From assembly GCF_003018255.1 (NCBI RefSeq), contig NZ_CP027440.1: DNA of 64,000 nucleotides; one strand, 5' to 3'. A program made the translations under genes and the position numbers. The stretch's first letter is position 1, and each line of letters begins with the position of its first letter. Of the stretch, positions 14,978 to 50,902 are shown one piece after another. Origin of the DNA: Escherichia coli (GTDB lineage Bacteria > Pseudomonadota > Gammaproteobacteria > Enterobacterales > Enterobacteriaceae). The notes below the pieces were generated by a model that searched no databases, was not told the DNA's origin, and saw only the letters and a list, made by a program, of their open reading frames with translations.

Positions 14978-16165
14978 TTATTGCGCCGCTGCGTACAGGC
15001 CGACAATCTGCTCCAGGCTGGCGGTACGCGGGTTACTGCGCAGACAAATATCTTCCAGCGCGGCCTGCGCCCATGCGCCGTAATGCGCAGATGTCGCACC
15101 AACATCGCCCAGTCGTTTACCAATCCCAACTTCCGCTATCAGCTCACTTACCGCATTAATAGCGTCACGATCGTCGGATTTTTTAGTTCGCAGCGCCCGA
15201 CCAACCAAGCTAAACCGATCACGACAAACCATCCGGTTAAATTCCATCACCGTTGGCAACAACATGGCGTTCGCCAGACCGTGCGGAATATGCAGCGCCG
15301 CCCCTGGCTGATGCGCCATCGCGTGGCACAACCCAAGTCCGGCACTGGAAAACGCCATTCCCGCCATACATGAAGCCAGCAACATGCTCTCGCGCGCGGC
15401 AAGGTCATGACCGTAGCCCACCGCTTTCGGCAGCGATTTGCCAATCATCGCAATGGCACCAATCGCCAGACTGTCGGTAAACGGTGTGGCGTTCAGCGCG
15501 CTGTACGCTTCAATGGCATGGGTTAACGCATCAATGCCAGTCATCGCCGTGACATGCGACGGCACACCTTCGGTCAATGCGGCGTCGAGAATCGCCACAT
15601 CCGGCATCAGCGAGGCATGGGCTAACACCTGCTTGCGCCCGCTCACCGCGTCGATAATCACCGTTACGTTGGTGGTTTCAGAGCCGGTTCCGGCGGTCGT
15701 TGGAATGGCAATCAACGGCAGGCGCGGTTGCAGAACGCTGGTTTCTGACATTTCTGCCAGCGTGCTATCGGGGTTCGTCACCAGCAACGCCACGGCTTTC
15801 GCCGCATCCAGCACCGAGCCGCCGCCAAACGCGATCACCCCGTCACAACCTGATTCACGCAACTGCGCCACGGCTGCACACACGTCGGTGATGCACGGTT
15901 CGCCCACCGGACATGGCCAGAGCGTCATGGCGATACCTTTAACGGCCAGGCTACGCGTCAGCCCGGCGGTCATCCCCGCCTGATGCAAAAAGCTGTCTGC
16001 CATCACGAACAGATGTTTCAGCCCACGCGTTTGCGCTTGCTGCCCACAACTGCTCACCGCGCCCGGACCGCAAAGCGTCACCGGTGGAACGCTAAATGTT
16101 TTCACCCGCTGCAGATTCAGGGTATCGAATGCCTGAAAAAGCGCCGTTTGCAATTCACTTTGCAT
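14978..16165 (-). CDS. eutG: iron-containing alcohol dehydrogenase EutG
   Basis: ORF 14978..16192; start taken at internal Met (MQSELQTALFQAF, 395 aa); Fe-ADH family motifs. Confidence 0.9.
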   Translation of the reverse strand: MQSELQTALFQAFDTLNLQRVKTFSVPPVTLCGPGAVSSCGQQAQTRGLKHLFVMADSFLHQAGMTAGLTRSLAVKGIAMTLWPCPVGEPCITDVCAAVAQLRESGCDGVIAFGGGSVLDAAKAVALLVTNPDSTLAEMSETSVLQPRLPLIAIPTTAGTGSETTNVTVIIDAVSGRKQVLAHASLMPDVAILDAALTEGVPSHVTAMTGIDALTHAIEAYSALNATPFTDSLAIGAIAMIGKSLPKAVGYGHDLAARESMLLASCMAGMAFSSAGLGLCHAMAHQPGAALHIPHGLANAMLLPTVMEFNRMVCRDRFSLVGRALRTKKSDDRDAINAVSELIAEVGIGKRLGDVGATSAHYGAWAQAALEDICLRSNPRTASLEQIVGLYAAAQ

Positions 16166-16991
16166 AGATCCCCTCCGTTTTCTCTCGCCCACTACTGGCG
16201 ATCGCCAGCGGGGTCATAAACAAACTGTGCTGCGGTAAATGCACCTGTAACGCCGGGAATTGTTTGCGAAACAGTTCCGCTACGCCCGGTTGCATACAGG
16301 AACCGCCCGCCAGCCATAAATCCGTAATGCCCTGCCCTTCAATATGCCGGGCCACAATGTCCGCCATTTTTTCGTACACCGGTTTCACCGCGGGCCAAAT
16401 CTCGTCACCGTGACCGCGTTTGTACTGCTCTGCCTCTTCCAGCGAAATACGGCGATTTCCGGCGAGAGTCAGAGAGATGTGATGTCCGCCGGTGGCTTCA
16501 TCCGCCGAGTACGTCACTTTGCCCTTTTTCACGATGGCAATGCCGGTAGTGCCGCCGCCGATATCCACTACACCGGCGTTGTCCAGTTGCAGCAGATCCG
16601 CAACTGCGGTTGGCTCATCCAGCACATGGCTCACTTCCAGTCCAGCAGACTCCAGCACGTTGATGGAAATACGCGGGTCCGTACCTGGAGGAAAAGAGGT
16701 CGCCGCATGGCTAAAACGGCGACCGAATTGCTGCTCGAGGGTGTCGAGATGGCGACGAACAATGGTGACCGCACCGAAGAAATCCCAGACGATGCCGTCG
16801 CGGACCACATCAGCCCAGTCGAGGCATACCGCCACCGGCTGACCGTCGCGGTCGACAACCATCGACACCACATCGCAGGTGCCCAGATCCACCCCCAGCC
16901 ACAGCGGAGATTCCGTCGCGGCGGGCGTCTGGTTACACAGCGTTGCCGCCGTTTGCAGACGTGGGGTGAGCCATTGTTCGTCGTGCGCCAT
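16155..16991 (-). CDS. eutJ: ethanolamine utilization chaperone-like protein EutJ (Hsp70/actin fold)
   Basis: 278-aa ORF; 11-nt overlap with eutG start. Confidence 0.92.
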   Translation of the reverse strand: MAHDEQWLTPRLQTAATLCNQTPAATESPLWLGVDLGTCDVVSMVVDRDGQPVAVCLDWADVVRDGIVWDFFGAVTIVRRHLDTLEQQFGRRFSHAATSFPPGTDPRISINVLESAGLEVSHVLDEPTAVADLLQLDNAGVVDIGGGTTGIAIVKKGKVTYSADEATGGHHISLTLAGNRRISLEEAEQYKRGHGDEIWPAVKPVYEKMADIVARHIEGQGITDLWLAGGSCMQPGVAELFRKQFPALQVHLPQHSLFMTPLAIASSGREKTEGIYAK

Positions 16992-17001
16992 CTGTTACTC
17001 C

Positions 17002-18405
17002 TTAAACAATGCGAAACGCATCGACTAATACACAGCGACGCAGACGGACAAACGTCCGCGCGCTGGTTACCCCTTCACCGGTTGGCGTGGTGATGGTCAT
17101 AGTGGTCCAGCCTTCCCCGCCCAGCCCCAGCCCGGCAATGCACGGTCCGTTCTTAACGAAAATGCTGGTATCAATGGCATTCGCCATCTGGTTCATGTTC
17201 TCGATATTGCGCGAGTGCATTGCCGCCGTGTGGTGGCAACCGCCTTCCAGTTTCACCGCCAGCGCAATGGCATCCGCCACGTTGGCGACGCGCACGACGG
17301 GCAGCACCGGCATCATCAGTTCAGTCACAGCAAACGGATGTTCTGCGGTGGTTTCTACAAACAGCAGTCGCGTTTGTTCCGGAACTTTAAGGCCGATTGC
17401 CGCCGCGATTTTCGCCGCATCGCGACCAACCCAGTCACGGCTGACGGTGCCTTTTCCGCGCTCGTCGATATTTTTCAGCAACACCGATTGCAGTTGCTGC
17501 GCCTGCTCTGCGGTCAGTTTCACCGCATGCTGGCCTTCCATCAGACGCATCAGTTCATCGGCTACGCTATCAACAACAATCAGTACCTTTTCGTCGGCAC
17601 AAATGATGTTGTTATCGAAAGAAGCACCTTTGACGATGGACTGAGCTGCACGGGCGAGGTCGGCGGTTTCATCCACCACTACCGGCGGGTTACCGGCACC
17701 TGCCGCAATCAGGCGTTTATTGGTGTGTTTGCGCGCCGCTTCCACTACCGCTTCGCCGCCGGTCACCACCAGCAGGCCGATACCCGGAAACTTGAACAAG
17801 CGTTGCGCGGTTTCGATATCCGGATTTGCTACGGTAACCAGTAAGTTTTCCGGCCCGCCTGCGGCAACAATCGCCTGGTTGAGCAGCGTAATCGCCCGCT
17901 GGGAGACTTTTTTCGCCGCCGGATGCGGGGCAAAAATGACGCTGTTGCCCGCGGCAATCAGGCTGATGGCGTTATTAATGACGGTTGCCGCCGGGTTAGT
18001 GGAAGGCGTCACCGAAGCCACTACGCCCCAGGGCGCGTTTTCAATTAAAGTCAGGCCGTTGTCGCCAGTCAGCACCTGTGGAGAGAGGCACTCAACGCCT
18101 GGTGTGCCGCGCGCCTGAGCGACGTTTTTGGCAAATTTATCTTCAACGCGCCCCATGCCGGTTTCACTGACGGCAAGTTCCGCTAAATCTCTGGCGTGTT
18201 TTTCGCCTGCTTCACGAATGGCAGCAATGGCTAACTGGCGCATTGCCACGCTTTTTAACCCTTGCTGGGCGACTTTGGCTGCCGCAACGGCGTCATCCAG
18301 GGACGCGAAAACGCCCATCTCATGAACGGCGGCGGGCGGCGTGTCACTGCTTTGCATTTTCAGCAGTACCGCTTTCACCACCTGTTCAATATCCTGTTGA
18401 TTCAT
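17002..18405 (-). CDS. eutE: CoA-acylating acetaldehyde dehydrogenase EutE
   Basis: 467-aa ORF; aldehyde dehydrogenase family; synteny. Confidence 0.93.
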   Translation of the reverse strand: MNQQDIEQVVKAVLLKMQSSDTPPAAVHEMGVFASLDDAVAAAKVAQQGLKSVAMRQLAIAAIREAGEKHARDLAELAVSETGMGRVEDKFAKNVAQARGTPGVECLSPQVLTGDNGLTLIENAPWGVVASVTPSTNPAATVINNAISLIAAGNSVIFAPHPAAKKVSQRAITLLNQAIVAAGGPENLLVTVANPDIETAQRLFKFPGIGLLVVTGGEAVVEAARKHTNKRLIAAGAGNPPVVVDETADLARAAQSIVKGASFDNNIICADEKVLIVVDSVADELMRLMEGQHAVKLTAEQAQQLQSVLLKNIDERGKGTVSRDWVGRDAAKIAAAIGLKVPEQTRLLFVETTAEHPFAVTELMMPVLPVVRVANVADAIALAVKLEGGCHHTAAMHSRNIENMNQMANAIDTSIFVKNGPCIAGLGLGGEGWTTMTITTPTGEGVTSARTFVRLRRCVLVDAFRIV

Positions 18406-18416
18406 GATGTTCTGCC

Positions 18417-18704
18417 TTATTTGTGGAAAATGACCTGACCGCCAGACACCACCTCATCGACGATGCCAATCACGCACAGATCGACCGGTGACGTTTCGCT
18501 TTTATGCGCCTGGCGGGCGGAACTGCCACTCACCAGCAACACCCACTCCCCGGTTCCCGCGCCAATATTGTCGATGGCGACGGCGCATTGCCCGTCAGGA
18601 TTACCTTGTGGATCAATCATTTCCACCATCAGCAATTTGTCATGCGCCAGTCCGTGATGGCGTACGGTACAAACAATTTGTCCAGTGACGACTGCCAGTT
18701 TCAT
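18417..18704 (-). CDS. eutN: microcompartment vertex protein EutN (CcmL/EutN family)
   Basis: 95-aa ORF; synteny eutM-eutN-eutE. Confidence 0.92.
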   Translation of the reverse strand: MKLAVVTGQIVCTVRHHGLAHDKLLMVEMIDPQGNPDGQCAVAIDNIGAGTGEWVLLVSGSSARQAHKSETSPVDLCVIGIVDEVVSGGQVIFHK

Positions 18705-18810
18705 ACCCGCCTCCGTGGCGTATTTCAGGTAAAAGCTCCCCCTACCCTCCGCAGAAGGTAAAATGAAAAAGGAGAGAGCGTGACGCCCGAATCGACGTCA
18801 CACAGGGTGA

Positions 18811-19104
18811 TTACAGGTTGCTGCTATCGCCTTTCAGGCCGATCGGGAAGACTTCTTCCAGGTCGCCGTGCGGACGCGGGATAACGTGTACAGATACCAG
18901 CTCGCCGATACGCTGTGCCGCTGCGGCACCTGCATCGGTCGCGGCTTTACAGGCTGCAACATCACCACGAACCATGGCAGTACACAGGCCGCCGCCAATC
19001 TGCTTAACACCAACCAGCTTGACGCGCGCAGCTTTAACCATCGCGTCAGAAGCCTCAATCAGTGCAACCAGGCCCCGGGTTTCGATCATTCCTAATGCTT
19101 CCAT
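18811..19104 (-). CDS. eutM: major microcompartment shell protein EutM (BMC domain)
   Basis: ORF 18811..19146; start taken at internal Met ([18 protein letters not shown], 97 aa) preceded by SD agagga. Confidence 0.92.
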
Positions 19105-19142
19105 TGTGCTTTCCTCTTTATCAGGGTCCAGAACGGGACCGT

Positions 19143-20159
19143 TCATTCAACCAGTGTTTGTAAACTGCTTTCGCGGTTCACTTCTGTCTGACGCTGCACA
19201 GCTGCCACCAGCGCCAGTTCGATAATTTCCTGCACGCTACAACCACGAGAGAGATCGTGCATCGGCGCGGCAAGTCCTTGTATCAATGGCCCGACGGCAC
19301 GATATCCGCCAAGTCGTTGTGCGATTTTGTAGCCAATATTTCCGGCTTCCAGCGACGGAAAAACCATCACATTAGCTTTGCCCTGTAACGGGCTGGCAGG
19401 CGCTTTTTGCGCCGCCACTTCCGGCACGAAGGCGGCGTCAAACTGCAACTCGCCATCGACAACCAGCTTTGGTGCGCGCTCACGGACGATTTCTGTCGCC
19501 TGCTGGACGTTGGCAACGCAGGGGTGACGGGCACTACCGTTGCTGGAAAACGACAACATCGCCACGCGCGGTTCTTCTCCGGTGATGGCGCGCCAGGTTT
19601 CGGCGCTGGCAAGCGCGATATCCGCCAGTTGCGCCGCCGTCGGCTGTGGCACTACGCTGCAATCGGCAAAGCCCAATGCGGGGCCACTGTACTGTGGCAG
19701 CATCAGGAAAATGGAGGAGAGCGTTTTACAGCCTGGCTGTAAGCCGATAATGCGTAATCCGGCACGCAGCACATTCGCCGTGGAAGAGAGATTGCCCGCG
19801 ATACAGACATCCGCTGTCCCGGCGCTGACCATTGCGGCAGCGAACATCAGCGGATCGGTGAGTTTATCCAGCGCATCCGGCGGCGTTTTTTCGCCCGCAC
19901 GGGCCAGCCAGCGGAGAGCAAATTCTTCCCGCATTGCGAGGTTGCCATGCGGATCAATCACCTGTAGCCCGTCCATCGCCACGCCGTGACTGAGCGCAAA
20001 CTGACGAAGTTCAAACGGATTGGCGACCAGAATGGGCGTTGCCAGACCTTGTTGATGTAAATATTGCGCCGCTTTCAGCACACGTTGATCTAACGCATCC
20101 GGAAAAACTACTCTGGCGGGCGCTCGCAACGCCAGTTTACGACAACGTTCAATAATCAT
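19143..20159 (-). CDS. eutD: phosphotransacetylase EutD
   Basis: 338-aa ORF; Pta family; 4-nt overlap with eutT. Confidence 0.93.
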
Positions 20160-20959
20160 TGCGTTTCCCCCAGTCGTTGTTGGATCTGCTTCACCGTTAG
20201 CGACTGCTTCGTTACGCTCAGGATCATCATCACGTAAACCGTGCTGGAAAGGCGGTTCAGCGCCTGCAAGATGTCCGGGCGTAATACTTCAAAGCTGCGG
20301 GTGATAAACACCTGCGCCGCTACAGTTTCGGTTTCCCGCACTTTGGTGCGTAGCAGATTGAGCAACGCCGCATCACGCCCGTGGCTGGCTTCCGGCACCA
20401 GATGATCGTGGTCGAGATAGCGCAGCGGCTGGTGAGAAAGCCGATGCAGATCTTCGTCAGAAAGCCCGACAATCGCTTGTTCGCCCAGCGGTTCCCCCAG
20501 CGCATCGGCGCGCATAATGTTGCCAAGACGCGAACGGATATCCGCCAGCCACGGCTGCCACGGTTCCGCCAGTTCAATTTGCAGCCACACTGCCAGCGCA
20601 ATGGTGCTGTCGAGAACAGCGCGAAAAGCCAGGCGCGGATCGCTTTTGGCAACCATTTTTTCCGCCGACAGGTGAGTCAGCGTATCCGGCTTTTTTGCCA
20701 CCGGCTGGCGGCACAGTTCGCAGCACGCCTGCGGATGTTCATCGCTACTGGTTAGCCCGTGAACGGGCTGCGGCTGCTGCTGTTCATCGTCAACAAACAG
20801 GCGGCCCTGCTCGTCAATAAACTTGATGCGCAGATGGCGGCTTTCCAGTAACTCCCGGGCAGAGGGCGTCAGGCGACTGTCCGCAGGGAGATGGATCTCT
20901 GCGCCTTCGCTGAGCGTATGATTCGCTCTTAGCCATGCTTCGGTGATGAAATCTTTCAT
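20156..20959 (-). CDS. eutT: cob(I)alamin adenosyltransferase EutT
   Basis: 267-aa ORF; cysteine-rich motif (HPQACCELC); synteny. Confidence 0.9.
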
Positions 20960-21657
20960 AAGGATTGCCAGTTAGCCGGCCAGGCGACATACAGGAATTT
21001 CACGCTGGATGTCGTACCAAATTCGATGCTGGAGCCTTTCGGGATAAACATCACATCGCCCGCTTTGGCGATCATAGTTTCGCCTTCGTGGCGAACATGC
21101 AGCTCCCCTTCCAGCACCATGTCGATTTCGTCGTAGTTCAGGGTCCACGGAAAGAAGGCGTTCTCCCACTGCATGAAACCAGCGGCCATACTGCTGCCGT
21201 CGTCTCCGGTCACGAGATCAGTCAAGCCTACGCAGTGCGGTTCCGCGCCATCGAAACGACCAAACTTGACGCTGCTGCCATCAATAACTTTGATGCCGCC
21301 TTTGCCGGTCACCGATTTAAAGCTCGGCTGCAGTGCACCCTGCTCCAGCGACTGTTTTTCCTTCATCACTTTTTCCATCAGCTGCGCGACCAGGCTTTCG
21401 GTAAACTGACCTTCCGGCAGTTGGGCGATAATGGTTTCACGGATGCGCTGGCTTTCGGTTTTATCGGCTGATGCGCTGGCGGGAACAGACGCCGTTACCG
21501 GGATCGATTCATCACATTCGGTGATGGTAAAACCCAACAGATCAGCCACTTCACGAGCTTCCGGGGTAATAATGCTGGCGCGCAGAACCACGGACATTGC
21601 CAGTTCGCCGCGCGCGTGTGCTTCACGAATATCATTCGCTGTGATGAGTTTTTTCAC
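20956..21657 (-). CDS. eutQ: cupin-fold acetate kinase-like protein EutQ
   Basis: 233-aa ORF; synteny. Confidence 0.9.
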   Translation of the reverse strand: MKKLITANDIREAHARGELAMSVVLRASIITPEAREVADLLGFTITECDESIPVTASVPASASADKTESQRIRETIIAQLPEGQFTESLVAQLMEKVMKEKQSLEQGALQPSFKSVTGKGGIKVIDGSSVKFGRFDGAEPHCVGLTDLVTGDDGSSMAAGFMQWENAFFPWTLNYDEIDMVLEGELHVRHEGETMIAKAGDVMFIPKGSSIEFGTTSSVKFLYVAWPANWQSL

Positions 21658-22111
21658 CTGCTTCCTCCTGTTTGGTGAGAGATGCCAGATAATCCACCAG
21701 TTGCTGCACGCTTTGCGGGTCGTGGCTGTTTAGCTCGAAAATCGGCTCTTCGAAGCCCGTCTCAAGCAATAACTTTCGCGTTGCGGCGACGTCAGCATCT
21801 GGCATGTCCGTTTTACTGATGACGGCGATTTGCCGTTTGCTGACGCCAATATCCAGCAACCCGGCAGGCAACCGACTTTCCGGGTCATTCGCGCCGTGGA
21901 CATAGATCAGCATGTCCACATCCTGTAGCGTGGTAATTAATGCGTGATACCAGCGGGGATGGCTAAAATATTCACCCGGCGTATCAATATCGCCATTATC
22001 ATTAAATTCCACGGCCTGCGTTTTTCTGGCGAGGGTATAATTCCCCTGCAACGCATTAAATAACGTTGTTTTTCCTGCCCCGACGGTACCCACAAACGCA
22101 ATTCGTTTCAT
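21632..22111 (-). CDS. eutP: P-loop NTPase (acetate kinase-like) EutP
   Basis: 159-aa ORF with Walker A motif (GTVGAGKTT); 26-nt overlap with eutQ start. Confidence 0.9.
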   Translation of the reverse strand: MKRIAFVGTVGAGKTTLFNALQGNYTLARKTQAVEFNDNGDIDTPGEYFSHPRWYHALITTLQDVDMLIYVHGANDPESRLPAGLLDIGVSKRQIAVISKTDMPDADVAATRKLLLETGFEEPIFELNSHDPQSVQQLVDYLASLTKQEEAGEKTHHSE

Positions 22112-22123
22112 GAATGCCTCATA

Positions 22124-22459
22124 TTAACTTTTGGTCATTTCACAAAGCGTATAATTTAATAAGCGTCCTAAACCACTGACGGTTTGTGATAACGCTTCTT
22201 CTACTGCGCCCACCGAACCATAAATCACCAGCGCGCCGCTAAAACGGTCGAGAAAACCGATATGCACATCGGCGGCTTTCAAAGCTAAATCACCGGCGAT
22301 CATCGCCGTTTCTCCGGGAGTTAGCGTCATAATGCCAATTGCGCCCGCATCCGGAACGCCGATTTTCTTCGCCAGTTCCTCGCCGGGATGCGCGATGAGA
22401 TGCGCCAGCGTGACCTGTTTGCCGGGCACAAATTCCTGAATGATGCGTTCTTTATCCAT
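22124..22459 (-). CDS. eutS: microcompartment shell protein EutS (permuted BMC domain)
   Basis: ORF 22124..22531; start taken at internal Met ([16 protein letters not shown], 111 aa); first gene of operon. Confidence 0.88.
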
Positions 22460-22560
22460 GAGTCGCCGCCTGTGAAAAACTTTCGTGTATCGTGACAATT
22501 TTTCGTCAGAGTAAATAACAAAATTCGGCAAGCGCGTTTAAAAGGTGAGGTAGATCACTA
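22460..22560 (-). promoter_or_regulatory. eut operon upstream promoter region (expected EutR-dependent promoter)
   Basis: Position immediately upstream of first operon gene eutS; no motif confirmed. Confidence 0.4.
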
Positions 22561-30207: not shown

Positions 30208-32187
30208 TCAGTGAGATTTGACTGATTTTACCCCCAGCCAGTCAATAATCCCCTGTGCCGCATGACGTCCTTCTGCCATTGCGGTAACCACCAGATCCGC
30301 ACCACGCACGGCGTCACCACCGGCGAAGATTTTCGGATTGGTGGTCTGGTAACGGTACTGGCTTTCCACATCCGCGATGATGCGGCCCCATTTGTCTACC
30401 GTTACACCGTGCGACTCCAGCCACGGCATCCCGTGCGGATTGAAGCCAAACGCCATAATCACCGCATCGGCTGGCATGACAAATTCACTGCCTTCCACCG
30501 GCACTGGACGCCGACGCCCCTGGGCATCCGGCTCGCCAAGACGCGTGCGCAGGAAACGAATCCCGCAGACGTGACCTTGTTCATTCAGTTCAAGCGCCAC
30601 CGGCTGGACGTTAAATTCGAAGTTGGCCCCCTCTTCACGGGCGTTCTTCACCTCTTTCTTCGAGCCTGGCATGTTAGCTTCATCACGACGATAAGCGCAG
30701 GTGACGTTACTCGCGCCGTGGCGCAGCGCAGTACGCACACAGTCCATCGCGGTGTCGCCGCCGCCCAGTACCACGACGTTAAGTCCGGCAGTATTGATAA
30801 ACGGCTCTTCCGGTAGCTCTTCGAGTCCCATCACCTGTTTAGTATTGGCGATGAGGAACGGCAGCGCGTCATAAACGCCCGGCGCATCTTCATTGGGTAA
30901 ACCCGCTTTCATGGAGCGGTAAGTGCCTACGCCAACGAAGACCGCGTCGTATTGTTCCAAAAGCGAATTCAAAGAGACATCTTTACCCACTTCACAATTG
31001 AGTTCGAAGTGAATCCCCATCGCGCTGAAGATTTCCCGACGGCGTGCCAGCAGGGATTTATCCAGTTTGAAAGAAGGAATGCCGAAAGTGAGCAAGCCAC
31101 CGATTTCTGGATGGCGATCGTACACCGTCACCTCTACGCCATTGCGGGTCAAAACATCCGCACAGGCCAGCCCTGCCGGACCCGCACCGATAATCGCCAC
31201 CCGCTTGTCCACTTTGGTGACATGGCTTAAGTCAGGACGCCAACCTTTCGCCAACGCCTGATCTGAAATGTAGCGTTCAATGTTACCGATAGTTACTGCG
31301 CCGTGCTCATCGCGAATAGTACAGGCACCTTCACACAAACGGTCTTGCGGGCAAACGCGTCCGGTAATTTCCGGCAGGGTGTTGGTCTGGTGAGAAAGCT
31401 CGACGGCGGCGTCGATGTTTCCGGCTTTCACCAGTTCAATCCACTGCGGTATATGGTTATGCAGCGGGCAGGTCCATTCACAAACGCTGTGCTCGCCGCA
31501 CTTAAGGCAGCGCGAGGCTTCCCGTTGTACCTGATCGGCACGGAATGGCAGATAAATTTCATCAAAACCGGTTTTGCGCGCTTCAATCGCCAGTTTATCT
31601 GGCTCGCCACGCGCGGGCGTTGCCTGCATTTGCTCGACTTTACTCATTACCGGCATTTCTTGCGCCGCGGTACTGGCATGCCACGGTTGATGTTCCTGAC
31701 GTGCGGTACGCAAGCGGCGGGATTTCGCCATGCCTGAGAGTGCGGCGTCAGTGACCAGTTGCAGCGCGTCCGCTGGGCAATTCTCGACACAAGCAGGACC
31801 GTTTTCGCGCCCTGCACAAAGGTCGCATTTATGCGCCGTGGCTTTTACTTTTCCTGCCGCGACGGGGGTCAGGACGATTTGCATCGTACCAAATGGACAG
31901 GCCACCACGCAGGATTTACAGCCAATACACTTTTGCTGATTGACCTGAATGCTGTCATCAACGTGGCTGATTGCGCCATTAGGGCAGCTACGGGCGCAGG
32001 GCGCATCTTCACAATGGTGACAGGTCACGGCACTACGTTGCTGCTGATGTTTGATAACCGTAATTCGGGGATGAAAATGGTGTTGGCTCAGGACATGTTG
32101 CTCATCATTGTGAGCCATGACACAGGCGATTTCACAAGCATGACAACCCAGACATTGCTGACTGTTGGCCATAATAAAACGATTCAT
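30208..32187 (-). CDS. aegA: Fe-S cluster-containing oxidoreductase AegA (4Fe-4S ferredoxin domains + GltD-like FAD/NAD(P) domain)
   Basis: 659-aa ORF; multiple CxxCxxCxxxCP motifs; dinucleotide-binding GxGxxG. Confidence 0.92.
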   Translation of the reverse strand: MNRFIMANSQQCLGCHACEIACVMAHNDEQHVLSQHHFHPRITVIKHQQQRSAVTCHHCEDAPCARSCPNGAISHVDDSIQVNQQKCIGCKSCVVACPFGTMQIVLTPVAAGKVKATAHKCDLCAGRENGPACVENCPADALQLVTDAALSGMAKSRRLRTARQEHQPWHASTAAQEMPVMSKVEQMQATPARGEPDKLAIEARKTGFDEIYLPFRADQVQREASRCLKCGEHSVCEWTCPLHNHIPQWIELVKAGNIDAAVELSHQTNTLPEITGRVCPQDRLCEGACTIRDEHGAVTIGNIERYISDQALAKGWRPDLSHVTKVDKRVAIIGAGPAGLACADVLTRNGVEVTVYDRHPEIGGLLTFGIPSFKLDKSLLARRREIFSAMGIHFELNCEVGKDVSLNSLLEQYDAVFVGVGTYRSMKAGLPNEDAPGVYDALPFLIANTKQVMGLEELPEEPFINTAGLNVVVLGGGDTAMDCVRTALRHGASNVTCAYRRDEANMPGSKKEVKNAREEGANFEFNVQPVALELNEQGHVCGIRFLRTRLGEPDAQGRRRPVPVEGSEFVMPADAVIMAFGFNPHGMPWLESHGVTVDKWGRIIADVESQYRYQTTNPKIFAGGDAVRGADLVVTAMAEGRHAAQGIIDWLGVKSVKSH

Positions 32188-46538: not shown

Positions 46539-47111
46539 TTGACACTGTCATCGCAACATTATCTGGTGATCACTGCGTTGGGTGCCGATCGCCCTGGAAT
46601 TGTGAACACCATCACCCGTCATGTCAGTAGTTGCGGCTGTAATATTGAAGACAGTCGCCTGGCGATGCTGGGAGAAGAGTTCACGTTTATCATGCTGCTT
46701 TCCGGTTCATGGAATGCCATTACTCTGATTGAATCAACGTTACCGTTGAAAGGTGCCGAGCTGGATCTTTTAATCGTGATGAAGCGCACGACGGCGCGTC
46801 CGCGTCCGCCAATGCCAGCATCTGTCTGGGTTCAGGTCGATGTGGCAGACTCCCCGCATTTAATTGAACGCTTCACAGCACTTTTCGACGCGCATCATAT
46901 GAACATTGCGGAGCTGGTGTCGCGCACGCAACCTGCTGAAAATGAACGGGCTGCGCAGTTGCATATTCAGATAACCGCCCACAGCCCCGCATCTGCGGAC
47001 GCAGCAAATATTGAGCAAGCATTCAAAGCCCTATGTACAGAACTCAATGCACAAGGCAGTATTAACGTCGTCAATTATTCCCAACATGATGAACAGGATG
47101 GAGTTAAGTAA
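46539..47111 (+). CDS. gcvR: glycine cleavage system transcriptional repressor GcvR (tandem ACT domains)
   Basis: ORF 46473..47111; K-12-length product (190 aa, MTLSSQHYLVITALGADRPGIV) requires a TTG start at 46539; start uncertain. Confidence 0.8.
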   Translation: MTLSSQHYLVITALGADRPGIVNTITRHVSSCGCNIEDSRLAMLGEEFTFIMLLSGSWNAITLIESTLPLKGAELDLLIVMKRTTARPRPPMPASVWVQVDVADSPHLIERFTALFDAHHMNIAELVSRTQPAENERAAQLHIQITAHSPASADAANIEQAFKALCTELNAQGSINVVNYSQHDEQDGVK

Positions 47112-47581
47112 TGAATCCACTGAAAGCCGGTGATATCGCACCGAAATTTAGCTTGCCGGATCAAGACGGAGAACAAGTTAATTTGACCGACTTCCAGGGA
47201 CAGCGTGTTCTGGTTTATTTCTACCCGAAAGCCATGACCCCCGGCTGTACCGTACAGGCCTGCGGCTTACGCGATAACATGGATGAGTTGAAAAAAGCGG
47301 GCGTTGATGTGCTGGGTATCAGCACCGATAAACCCGAAAAACTCTCCCGTTTTGCGGAAAAAGAGCTGCTTAACTTTACGCTCCTGTCTGATGAGGACCA
47401 CCAGGTGTGCGAACAATTCGGCGTCTGGGGTGAAAAGTCCTTCATGGGCAAAACCTACGATGGTATTCATCGCATCAGCTTCCTGATTGACGCTGATGGC
47501 AAAATCGAACATGTCTTTGACGATTTCAAAACCAGCAATCACCACGACGTTGTGCTGAACTGGCTGAAAGAACACGCCTGA
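47111..47581 (+). CDS. bcp: thiol peroxidase / bacterioferritin comigratory protein (peroxiredoxin)
   Basis: 156-aa ORF; peroxiredoxin active site (TPGCT); start ATG shares one base with gcvR stop. Confidence 0.94.
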   Translation: MNPLKAGDIAPKFSLPDQDGEQVNLTDFQGQRVLVYFYPKAMTPGCTVQACGLRDNMDELKKAGVDVLGISTDKPEKLSRFAEKELLNFTLLSDEDHQVCEQFGVWGEKSFMGKTYDGIHRISFLIDADGKIEHVFDDFKTSNHHDVVLNWLKEHA

Positions 47582-47598
47582 TTACTTTGCTCCATTCC

Positions 47599-47625
47599 GT
47601 GCTGGCTGCGCTTGCGGCCAGCACA
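47599..47625. other. inverted repeat (gtgctggc-n10-gccagcac) in bcp-perM convergent spacer
   Basis: 8-bp GC-rich stem; no clear U-tract on either strand. Confidence 0.4.
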
Positions 47626-47679
47626 TCTCACATCTTCTCACTGCCCTGCAACACTCGTTTCAAATTTTTTCGCTGAAGG

Positions 47680-48741
47680 TCAGTCTTGCGCGATTTGCCC
47701 ATCGGGCCAGGCGTGAATCACGGCTTTGATCAGCGTCGCCAATGGAATGGCGAAGAATACGCCCCAGAATCCCCACAAACCACCGAAGATCACTACTGAT
47801 AAAATAATGACCAGCGGATGCAGGTTAACCGCTTCGGAGAACAACACAGGTACTAACAGGTTGCCGTCCAGCGCCTGAATGATCAGATACACCGCGAAGC
47901 AGCTCCAGAATTCCGTGCCAGCACCAAACTGGAATAGCGCCACGCCAACCACCGGAATGGTCACCACAAATGCACCAATGTACGGAATAAGTACCGAGAA
48001 GCCGACCAGCACCGCCAGCAGCAGCGAATAGTTCAGCCCGAAGAGTAAGAATCCCAGCCAGGTGGCAATCCCCACCACGATCATCTCCAGCACTTTGCCG
48101 CGGATATAGTTGGTGATTTGTTGATTCATCTCCTTCCACACCTGTCCTGCCAGTCCACGGTTACGCGGCAGCACCCGGCGAACGGCGTTCAGCATCTGCT
48201 CTTTGTCTTTCAGCAGGAAGAAGACCATCAATGGTACCAGCACCAGATAGACGGCAATGGTCAGCAAACCGACCAGCGAGGCGAGGGAAATTTTCACCAC
48301 CGAATCGCCCATGGTCAGCATCCGACTGCGCATATTTTCGGCCATTGCATCAATAATGCCCGCATCCATTAACGCCGGATAGCGGCGCGGCAACGTGGCG
48401 GCAAAGTCAGAAAGCTTATTGAGCATCCCCGGCATATCGCGGATTAAGTAGATGCCCTGCTGCCAGGCGATAGGCAGTACCACGAACGCCATCAGTAGCA
48501 ATATACCGACGAAAACCACCAATACAATCGACGTCGCCCAGCGGCGGGAGCAGCCAATAGATTGCAGGCGCACGGTTGGCCATTCCAGCAAATAGGCCAG
48601 CACAATAGCCACCAACAGCGGAGCAAGCAGGCCACTAAAGAAAAAGATAATGCCAAATCCGGCAACTAAAATAACCAGCAAGGCAATCGCTTCCGGGTCG
48701 CTAAAACGGCGGCGATACCATTGCATCAACATTTCGAGCAT
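47680..48741 (-). CDS. perM: AI-2E/PerM family permease
   Basis: 353-aa polytopic membrane ORF. Confidence 0.9.
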   Translation of the reverse strand: MLEMLMQWYRRRFSDPEAIALLVILVAGFGIIFFFSGLLAPLLVAIVLAYLLEWPTVRLQSIGCSRRWATSIVLVVFVGILLLMAFVVLPIAWQQGIYLIRDMPGMLNKLSDFAATLPRRYPALMDAGIIDAMAENMRSRMLTMGDSVVKISLASLVGLLTIAVYLVLVPLMVFFLLKDKEQMLNAVRRVLPRNRGLAGQVWKEMNQQITNYIRGKVLEMIVVGIATWLGFLLFGLNYSLLLAVLVGFSVLIPYIGAFVVTIPVVGVALFQFGAGTEFWSCFAVYLIIQALDGNLLVPVLFSEAVNLHPLVIILSVVIFGGLWGFWGVFFAIPLATLIKAVIHAWPDGQIAQD

Positions 48742-48953
48742 ACAGACCTTCCCTGAACCTCAAGAGCGGGATTGCGATCCGCAATTGTATCGAAATGCCA
48801 CAAAAAAGACTTCGCTTTTTATGACGGATTCAGGAAACTGAAAAGTCATTTGAGTGGGCTAATCTTCGCCGTTACACTCAAAGGCGGCGCGGTGGGAACG
48901 ATATTTCACAGTATCGGTCAAATGACTATCTCCAGAAATACAGGATAGAGGTT

Positions 48954-50417
48954 ATGTTCAGGCAGTTGAAAAAAAACCTGGTTGCAACCCTCATTGCTGC
49001 TATGACCATTGGTCAGGTAGCCCCGGCGTTTGCCGACAGCGCAGACACCTTGCCGGATATGGGAACCTCCGCAGGAAGCACACTTTCCATTGGTCAGGAA
49101 ATGCAGATGGGCGACTATTATGTCCGCCAGCTACGCGGCAGCGCGCCGTTAATTAATGATCCGCTGTTAACGCAATACATTAATTCGCTAGGAATGCGTC
49201 TGGTTTCGCATGCCAATTCGGTTAAGACACCGTTTCATTTCTTTCTGATCAACAACGATGAAATTAACGCCTTTGCTTTCTTTGGCGGCAACGTGGTGCT
49301 GCACTCTGCCCTGTTCCGTTATTCCGATAACGAAAGTCAACTGGCTTCAGTTATGGCGCACGAAATCTCCCACGTCACCCAACGTCACCTGGCGCGAGCG
49401 ATGGAAGATCAGCAGCGCAGCGCGCCGCTGACCTGGGTCGGCGCGTTAGGTTCTATTTTACTGGCGATGGCCAGTCCGCAGGCGGGGATGGCTGCGCTGA
49501 CCGGTACACTGGCGGGAACGCGCCAGGGGATGATCAGCTTCACCCAGCAAAATGAACAGGAAGCGGACCGCATTGGTATTCAGGTGCTGCAACGCTCAGG
49601 ATTCGATCCGCAGGCGATGCCGACCTTCCTCGAAAAATTACTCGATCAGGCGCGTTACTCCTCGCGTCCGCCGGAAATTTTATTGACTCACCCGTTGCCG
49701 GAAAGTCGTCTGGCAGATGCCCGCAACCGTGCTAATCAGATGCGCCCGATGGTGGTGCAGTCGTCGGAAGATTTCTATCTGGCGAAAGCGCGCACACTGG
49801 GGATGTATAATTCCGGACGTAACCAGCTCACCAGTGATTTGCTGGATGAATGGGCGAAAGGAAACGTTCGTCAGCAACGAGCGGCGCAATATGGTCGTGC
49901 TTTACAGGCGATGGAAGCCAATAAATACGACGAGGCGCGTAAAACGCTGCAACCGTTACTGGCGGCAGAACCTGGCAACGCATGGTATCTCGATCTGGCT
50001 ACTGATATCGATCTTGGGCAAAACAAAGCCAATGAGGCGATCAATCGTCTGAAAAATGCCCGCGATTTACGCACCAATCCGGTGTTGCAGCTCAACCTGG
50101 CGAACGCTTATCTGCAAGGCGGTCAACCACAAGAAGCGGCCAATATTCTGAATCGCTACACCTTTAATAATAAAGATGACAGCAACGGCTGGGATTTGCT
50201 GGCACAGGCGGAAGCCGCGCTAAATAACCGCGATCAGGAGCTGGCTGCGCGAGCAGAAGGTTATGCGCTCGCCGGACGACTCGATCAGGCCATTTCGCTG
50301 TTGAGTAGCGCCAGTTCGCAGGTGAAATTAGGCAGCCTGCAACAAGCGCGTTACGATGCGCGCATCGACCAGTTGCGCCAGCTGCAGGAACGCTTTAAGC
50401 CTTATACCAAGATGTAA
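48954..50417 (+). CDS. bepA: beta-barrel assembly-enhancing protease BepA (M48 peptidase + TPR)
   Basis: 487-aa ORF; signal peptide; HExxH ([10 protein letters not shown]). Confidence 0.93.
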
Positions 50418-50797: not shown

Positions 50798-50827
50798 GAA
50801 GTGCTCCATCGCTAGTTGAAGCACATT

Positions 50828-50860
50828 GCCGGATGCGACGCTTGCCGCGTCTTATCCGGC
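50828..50860. repeat. REP element (gccggatgcgacgcttgccgcgtcttatccggc)
   Basis: Canonical REP palindrome between convergent yfgD and hda. Confidence 0.8.
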
Positions 50861-50902
50861 CGACGAATACTATGGGTGCATATCCGACAATAAACGTCTT
50901 GT

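Follow-up and report, generated by a model that had tools for sequence, protein, structure and literature searches.

How do two genes that are almost 14 kb apart in Escherichia coli K-12 come to lie side by side in another strain of the species? In K-12 (MC4100) the arrangement is bcp-hyfABCDEFGHIJR-focB-yfgO, and the stop codons of bcp and yfgO (perM) are separated by 13,871 bp. The intervening hyf locus specifies hydrogenase 4 (FHL-2) and depends on sigma-54 and HyfR/FhlA. In the 64-kb stretch of DNA analysed here (the window), only 98 bp (47582-47679) separate the two stops. An earlier note on this DNA, which put that distance at about 98 bp and gave the K-12 order correctly, proposed that the cluster was either ancestrally absent or precisely deleted. 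The absence at this locus is confirmed, and the choice can be refined to a probable old deletion by an apparent relic of hyf DNA in the spacer, a direct repeat at its end and a corresponding scar in E. albertii.

The bcp-perM junction and its distribution

Gene order in the window is gcvR, bcp, the 98-bp spacer, perM/yfgO, bepA, arsC/yfgD and hda. The left flank of the spacer is bcp (47111-47581, + strand; thioredoxin-dependent thiol peroxidase), whose upstream neighbour is gcvR (46539-47111), and the right flank is perM (47680-48741, - strand; AI-2E family transporter). The two genes are convergent, tail to tail, with no hyf or focB gene in between. Their limits, taken from ORF calls, are identical in the RefSeq annotation of E. 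coli JNE23-011 (NZ_AP045067.1), which is 100% identical over the stretch. The Bcp protein is the same as that of K-12 (WP_001068682.1), and PerM shows 99% amino-acid identity to its K-12 counterpart. No coding remnant of hyf or focB was found by tblastn or by DNA and protein similarity anywhere in the 64-kb window, the sole tblastn match being to the ferredoxin domain of aegA (31714-32187).

The junction is contiguous in 1,126 of 5,426 complete E. coli genomes (21%), and bcp and perM are split in about 4,298. Within the same set, DNA of hyfD-hyfF, which encode subunits without hyc counterparts, is present in 4,296 genomes, always on the chromosome and mostly in single copy; none of these positive genomes has it on a plasmid. 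Since the counts of split loci and of hyfDEF are complementary, relocation of hyf is unsupported. It is scarcely credible that the cluster was assembled elsewhere, or that it moved to another chromosomal site or a plasmid: nothing in the 64 kb of this genome supports it, no hyf similarity at the DNA or protein level being found there, and the same junction recurs in the 1,126 genomes, in one of them with 100% identity. The population counts and the window thus support the conclusion that the cluster is missing at the bcp-perM locus and has probably not moved elsewhere. A search of plasmids for the junction itself returned only mislabelled chromosomal pieces. One of the records classed as E. 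coli plasmids, NZ_CP019906.1 (29 kb), has the junction at 5920-6060 with 100% identity, and is probably a misassigned chromosomal contig.

The absence of hyf is an already known, published lineage polymorphism of E. coli. The genes hyfABCDEFGHIJ were listed as specifically absent in phylogroup B2 (Touchon et al., 2009, PMC2617782, Table 5), and the hyf operon was later described as lost in the FGB2 lineage (Gonzalez-Alba et al., 2019, PMC6896753), in a study where gains and losses were scored against phylogroup D with no outgroup. IAI39, a strain of phylogroup F, has the whole hyf-focB block (L103 5926-19555; hyfR is annotated there as a pseudogene with an internal stop), and the statement of loss in FGB2 thus fails for at least this F strain.

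The perM-hda flank of the window is 97.6% identical to K-12 and 95.7% to CFT073, and the flanks do not cluster with this B2 reference, which suggests a strain outside phylogroup B2. The nearest genomes are JNE23-011 and JNE112863 at 99.9%; next come strains associated with poultry, APEC O78:H4 among them, at 99.1%, which we take to be ST117 of phylogroup G. At the junction, CFT073 nevertheless has the same gene order, a spacer identical at 97 of 98 nt, the same breakpoint and no hyf or focB; it differs in that the flanks of the window are not B2-like, the ST117-like strains being nearer. Judged from its sequence, the window carries the hyf-negative bcp-perM allele as found in B2 (CFT073) and in ST117-like strains. 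When positions 36000-60000 of the window are compared with the ST117-like relatives (hits H63-H120), the alignment falls into two pieces. These cover about 24,763 bp in the relatives and 24,001 bp in the query, so that some 760 bp of the relatives are without counterpart in the window.

A hairpin and a probable relic of hyf DNA in the spacer

The GC-rich inverted repeat that the earlier note had seen in the junction is real. It forms a hairpin at 47599-47624 with an 11-bp stem (arms 47599-47609 and 47614-47624) and a 4-nt loop (GCTT), with a folding energy of -22.9 kcal/mol and z = -5.7 relative to shuffled sequences. The hairpin is 100% identical in hyf-positive K-12, and in E. albertii its pairing is kept by a double change from T-A to C-G. 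In the 64-kb window it occurs once, even with up to 3 mismatches allowed, and so does not behave as a dispersed repeat of the REP/BIME type; an Rfam scan of 47000-49000 gave no match. As to a Rho-independent terminator, the GC-rich stem-loop is present and the U-tract is not: 3' of the stem ATCTCACA follows on the + strand and GGAATGGA on the - strand, and a terminator scan did not call the hairpin an intrinsic terminator. It is probably the 3'-end stem-loop shared by the convergent bcp and perM transcripts.

The first 44 bp 3' of bcp, hairpin included, are those of K-12 save for two differences just 3' of the stem. A segment of about 50 bp (47628-47677, + strand) is homologous to K-12 DNA upstream of hyfA (L002:3202-3255, L002 being the K-12 locus), with a local alignment score of 22, where shuffled sequences give 8.2 +/- 1.3 and none of 2,000 reaches 22. 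The segment maps inside the K-12 bcp-hyfA intergenic region, and the homology ends at GCTGAA. The description of the junction as clean and without gene remnants therefore holds for coding sequence only; it fails for non-coding DNA, the 3' half of the spacer being homologous to hyf upstream DNA.

Within this relic lies a decayed palindrome (47649-47663, + strand), which reads CAACAC-TCG-TTTCAA where the hyf palindrome reads CGACAC-GGG-TGTCG; the aligned sequences are CGACACGGGTGTCG in K-12 and CAACACTCGTTTCAA in the window. The K-12 palindrome (L002:3224) is about 109 bp upstream of a sigma-54-type element, TGGCA-N7-TGCA, at 3333. Such a distance from a -24/-12 element is the usual position of an enhancer, so that the palindrome, which is conserved in six non-Escherichia loci, lies where an upstream activating sequence for the hyf sigma-54 promoter would be placed. 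Motifs of the GTGTCGA type are repeated in the hycA-hypA intergenic region (taken from MG1655), which contains the FhlA enhancer sites. By this resemblance the hyf palindrome is a candidate HyfR/FhlA enhancer site; the FhlA preprint gives no binding-site consensus. In the window the sigma-54 promoter is gone and the palindrome decayed.

That this upstream DNA belongs to hyf rather than to bcp is indicated by comparison with other genera. In Kosakonia (L009, L031, L033), Enterobacter sp. Bisph1, a soil MAG and Citrobacter sp. R56 the hyf genes likewise come after bcp at this site, with Hyf proteins 60-89% identical to those of K-12. In K-12 and these loci the bcp-hyfA region shares a fixed architecture that comprises ATCACATT, the palindrome CGACAC-N3-GTGNCGA, TTTTTCGCT, TGACCATCA(C/T)TTTTGT, the sigma-54-type promoter TGGCA-N7-TGCA and CAAGGAGCC-ATG; palindrome, TGACCATCA box, promoter and ribosome-binding site are thus conserved beside hyfA in Kosakonia, Citrobacter sp. 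R56 and relatives. An nhmmer profile built from six non-Escherichia bcp-hyfA regions aligned with the K-12 region over its full length (E = 4e-17), and the posterior probability was high across the palindrome. The same profile gave no match to the spacers of the window and of E. albertii, that of the window yielding none at E <= 10, so the homology of the relic to hyf is transitive, through K-12 as the intermediate. In more than 50 hyf-less spacers of Enterobacterales, 35-150 bp long and holding simple bidirectional terminator hairpins, neither inspection nor the nhmmer profile found the hyf upstream segment. Being next to hyfA in hyf-positive genera and absent from hyf-less ones, the segment travels with hyf and not with bcp, and its decayed form in the window is best explained by descent from a hyf-positive ancestor. 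One other origin for DNA at the left junction in K-12 was considered, namely that GTTAAT...GACCATC is a duplicated fragment from the 3' end of perM (a target duplication). It was rejected because TGACCATCA(C/T)TTTTGT is conserved in the hyf upstream region of all hyf-positive genera.

Breakpoint, age and competing explanations

Set against the K-12 locus, with which it shares orthologous bcp, hairpin and perM, the whole spacer of the window corresponds to the first ~120 bp of the bcp-hyfA intergenic region. What the window lacks is 13,751 bp comprising the sigma-54 promoter, 11 hyf genes and focB; in addition, the palindrome is decayed and a 19-bp GTGATCAAGATCAC stretch is absent. The point at which the homology stops, GCTGAA (47672-47677, + strand), is one copy of a direct repeat that flanks hyf-focB in K-12. 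The K-12 copies lie at L002:3250 and, just before the perM stop, at 17001, a distance of 13,751 bp. In IAI39 and H8, where hyfG is 48 nt longer, this distance is 13,799 bp, and the left copy in H8 is ACTGAA, with 5 bp shared. The 48 nt correspond to a HyfG of 555 aa in K-12 (L002 10676-12343) and of 571 aa in H8 (L099 9129-10844), IAI39 and L090.

A single GCTGAA retained in the window is the pattern expected of a deletion between short direct repeats. A repeat of 6 bp (5 bp in H8) would by itself be weak evidence of deletion; it is the hyf regulatory relic, combined with an end at a short direct repeat, that argues for one. The blocks of K-12, H8 and IAI39 contain only hyf and focB genes, with no integrase, transposase or IS element, tRNA, att site or long terminal repeats. 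With GCTGAA as the sole repeat, the block does not have the make-up of an excised island or mobile element, and its GC content is 53.8%, that of the flanks being 52%. The locus resembles microhomology-mediated (illegitimate) deletions in having a direct repeat of 5-7 bp at both ends, one copy of which is kept, and in the lack of mobility genes; it differs in that the repeat, besides being short, is not perfect in every hyf-positive strain (H8 has ACTGAA), and the mechanism is a candidate only.

We consider it likely that the 98-bp spacer is the scar of an old deletion of about 13.8 kb between short direct repeats, and that the deletion predates the radiation of E. coli. The ancestral allele would have been hyf-positive, its block flanked by copies of GCTGAA. 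As the anatomy and the comparison suggest, some 13.8 kb would have been deleted between the repeats, with loss of the sigma-54 promoter, hyfA-J, hyfR and focB. Left behind would be the hairpin next to bcp, present in hyf-positive strains as well, some 50 bp of now decayed hyf regulatory DNA, and the GCTGAA breakpoint before the perM stop. The old deletion allele would then segregate in E. coli beside the hyf-positive allele, with its flanks homogenised by recombination, although this step is less certain. The spacer would now have no role beyond that of a 3' end for the convergent bcp and perM.

The age of the event is suggested by E. albertii. The type strain NBRC 107761 has a 99-bp spacer that is collinear over its whole length with that of the window. 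The two have the same architecture and the same breakpoint (..TTTTCGCTRAAGG|TCA), the 19-bp GTGATCAAGATCAC stretch is missing from both relics, and the right arm of the palindrome has decayed alike, to a derived GTTTCAA where all hyf-positive taxa have GTGTCGA or GTGCCGA. They differ in the left arm, which E. albertii has preserved as CGACAC, and in sequence, the spacers being 82-85% and the flanking genes 90-96% identical. Divergence of this order is ordinary between species and argues against recent transfer. The presence of the same scar in B2 E. coli and in E. albertii implies an old event, and points to what is probably a single deletion allele, older than or contemporaneous with the split of E. 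coli and E. albertii. Divergence within E. coli was compared as well: the relic of the window and the hyf-positive segment of K-12 and H8 have diverged by about 28%, whereas for bcp, hairpin and perM the figure is about 1%. Between K-12 and H8 the hyf block itself shows a difference of about 2%, and this implies long residence in E. coli. The lineage of the window has probably been without hyf throughout the E. coli timescale.

The hyf-negative allele might be one ancient haplotype, identical by descent in E. albertii and in B2/G-like E. coli, that either was maintained as a polymorphism over a long time or entered the B2+G ancestor by introgression from a divergent Escherichia, a proposal that we hold with somewhat less than even confidence. 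In CFT073, a 300-bp segment of perM (window ~48272-48571) is 92.7% identical to E. albertii and 87-88% to the window and K-12. The segment lies 600-900 bp from the hyf-less junction, which makes the locus a mosaic, and may be a surviving trace in B2 of introgression or of an old haplotype.

Two other histories need to be weighed against an old deletion. The ancestor of Escherichia may already have had bcp beside perM, hyf-focB being inserted later in the ancestor of phylogroups A/B1/C/D/E/F, in which case the window never received the block. The adjacency of bcp and perM in E. albertii, which is also the majority state in Enterobacterales, would if taken alone favour such a view, and outside E. 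coli-like contexts there is no FocB homologue between about 88% and 59% identity. The behaviour of the gap as an insertion hotspot across genera, with unrelated metabolic cassettes, points the same way. It is a recurrent, cross-genus site of gene-cassette turnover in Enterobacterales (L010 10469-14470, L012 10469-12995, L026, L046, L056, L064 and L070 10469-18561). Salmonella enterica arizonae and Pluralibacter carry a glycerate kinase, a GntP permease and a CdaR-type regulator there, the Citrobacter freundii complex an amidohydrolase with a Gate-domain transporter, and Klebsiella sp. BIGb0407 a dha cluster (glycerol facilitator, Fe-ADH, Dak1). Against original absence, the hyf-less spacer holds hyf-linked regulatory DNA that is missing in hyf-less genera, Kosakonia and Citrobacter sp. 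R56 have hyf at exactly this site, its upstream region built in the same way, and the block is without integrase, IS element, tRNA or att-like ends and near its flanks in GC content. We consider original absence unlikely on these grounds.

The other history is a recent, precise deletion confined to one lineage of E. coli, placed either at the base of B2+G or later in the strain of the window, the E. albertii junction being then an independent recurrence at the same microhomology. Its appeal comes from the distribution: among E. coli only B2 and G-like strains were seen to be hyf-negative, the F strain IAI39 is hyf-positive, and hyf has been described as lost in the FGB2 lineage (Gonzalez-Alba et al., 2019, PMC6896753). 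The different and shorter junctions of L004 and L008 also suggest that deletions recur here. The published call of loss, however, took phylogroup D as its reference and was not an outgroup analysis. Moreover, derived substitutions and indels are common to E. albertii and to the relic of the window and CFT073, and the divergence of this relic by ~28%, beside flanks that are ~99% identical, represents too great a decay for an event inside E. coli. A recent deletion is thus quite improbable, even though confinement to B2/G-like strains and a hyf-positive F would alone suggest loss inside E. coli. For this reason an old deletion needs to be supplemented by introgression, retained polymorphism or recurrent deletion at the same repeat, any of which is a possible explanation of the confinement.

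L004 and L008, GTDB species representatives labelled E. coli and only ~93% identical to E. coli, have spacers of 62 and 75 bp (L004 6643-6704, L008 10015-10089) without the relic, ending in ...CACTTCCGCTGAAGATTA. Tentatively, these junctions may represent a second, independent hyf deletion allele. The Escherichia comparison took in E. albertii, L004 and L008, and left out E. fergusonii, E. marmotae, E. ruysiae, E. whittamii and the named cryptic clades. Some FocB homologues had appeared as candidates for hyf in non-coli Escherichia, and were rejected: P0002, P0005 and P0011 come from frameshifted or error-rich E. coli-like loci, and P0123 (Escherichia sp. MOD1-EC4550 in one source) is uninformative as an outgroup because its flanks are 97.3% identical to the window.

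Meaning of the hyf-less state and other differences from K-12

The strain would be unable to make hydrogenase 4 (FHL-2) or FocB, a condition found in roughly one in five sequenced E. coli, among them the major B2 lineages of extraintestinal pathogens. Its formate-dependent H2 production would presumably proceed via hydrogenase 3. As a published lineage marker, the absence of hyf adds no new biology, and its practical meaning is small. The modest additions here are that part of the putative hyf enhancer region survives in the probable scar, which E. albertii appears to share, and that the gap turns over across Enterobacterales. The scar bears on the question of whether hyf was lost in B2 or an old allele without it was inherited there. 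If the allele is indeed an ancient haplotype, the published FGB2 'loss' would represent no new loss inside E. coli, and the presence or absence of hyf would mark an old haplotype bounded by recombination.

Two further differences were observed in the window. The eut operon is uninterrupted (7400-22460, eutR to eutS), with eutB (10662-12023) and eutA (12035-13438) 11 bp apart. In K-12 the operon is interrupted by the CPZ-55 prophage, so eut would be a second site where a K-12-specific insertion is absent from the window. The spacer between arsC/yfgD and hda (50798-50902) is 105 bp long, about 32 bp shorter than the 137 bp of K-12 and CFT073, and the short form is also present in hyf-positive H8 and IAI39.
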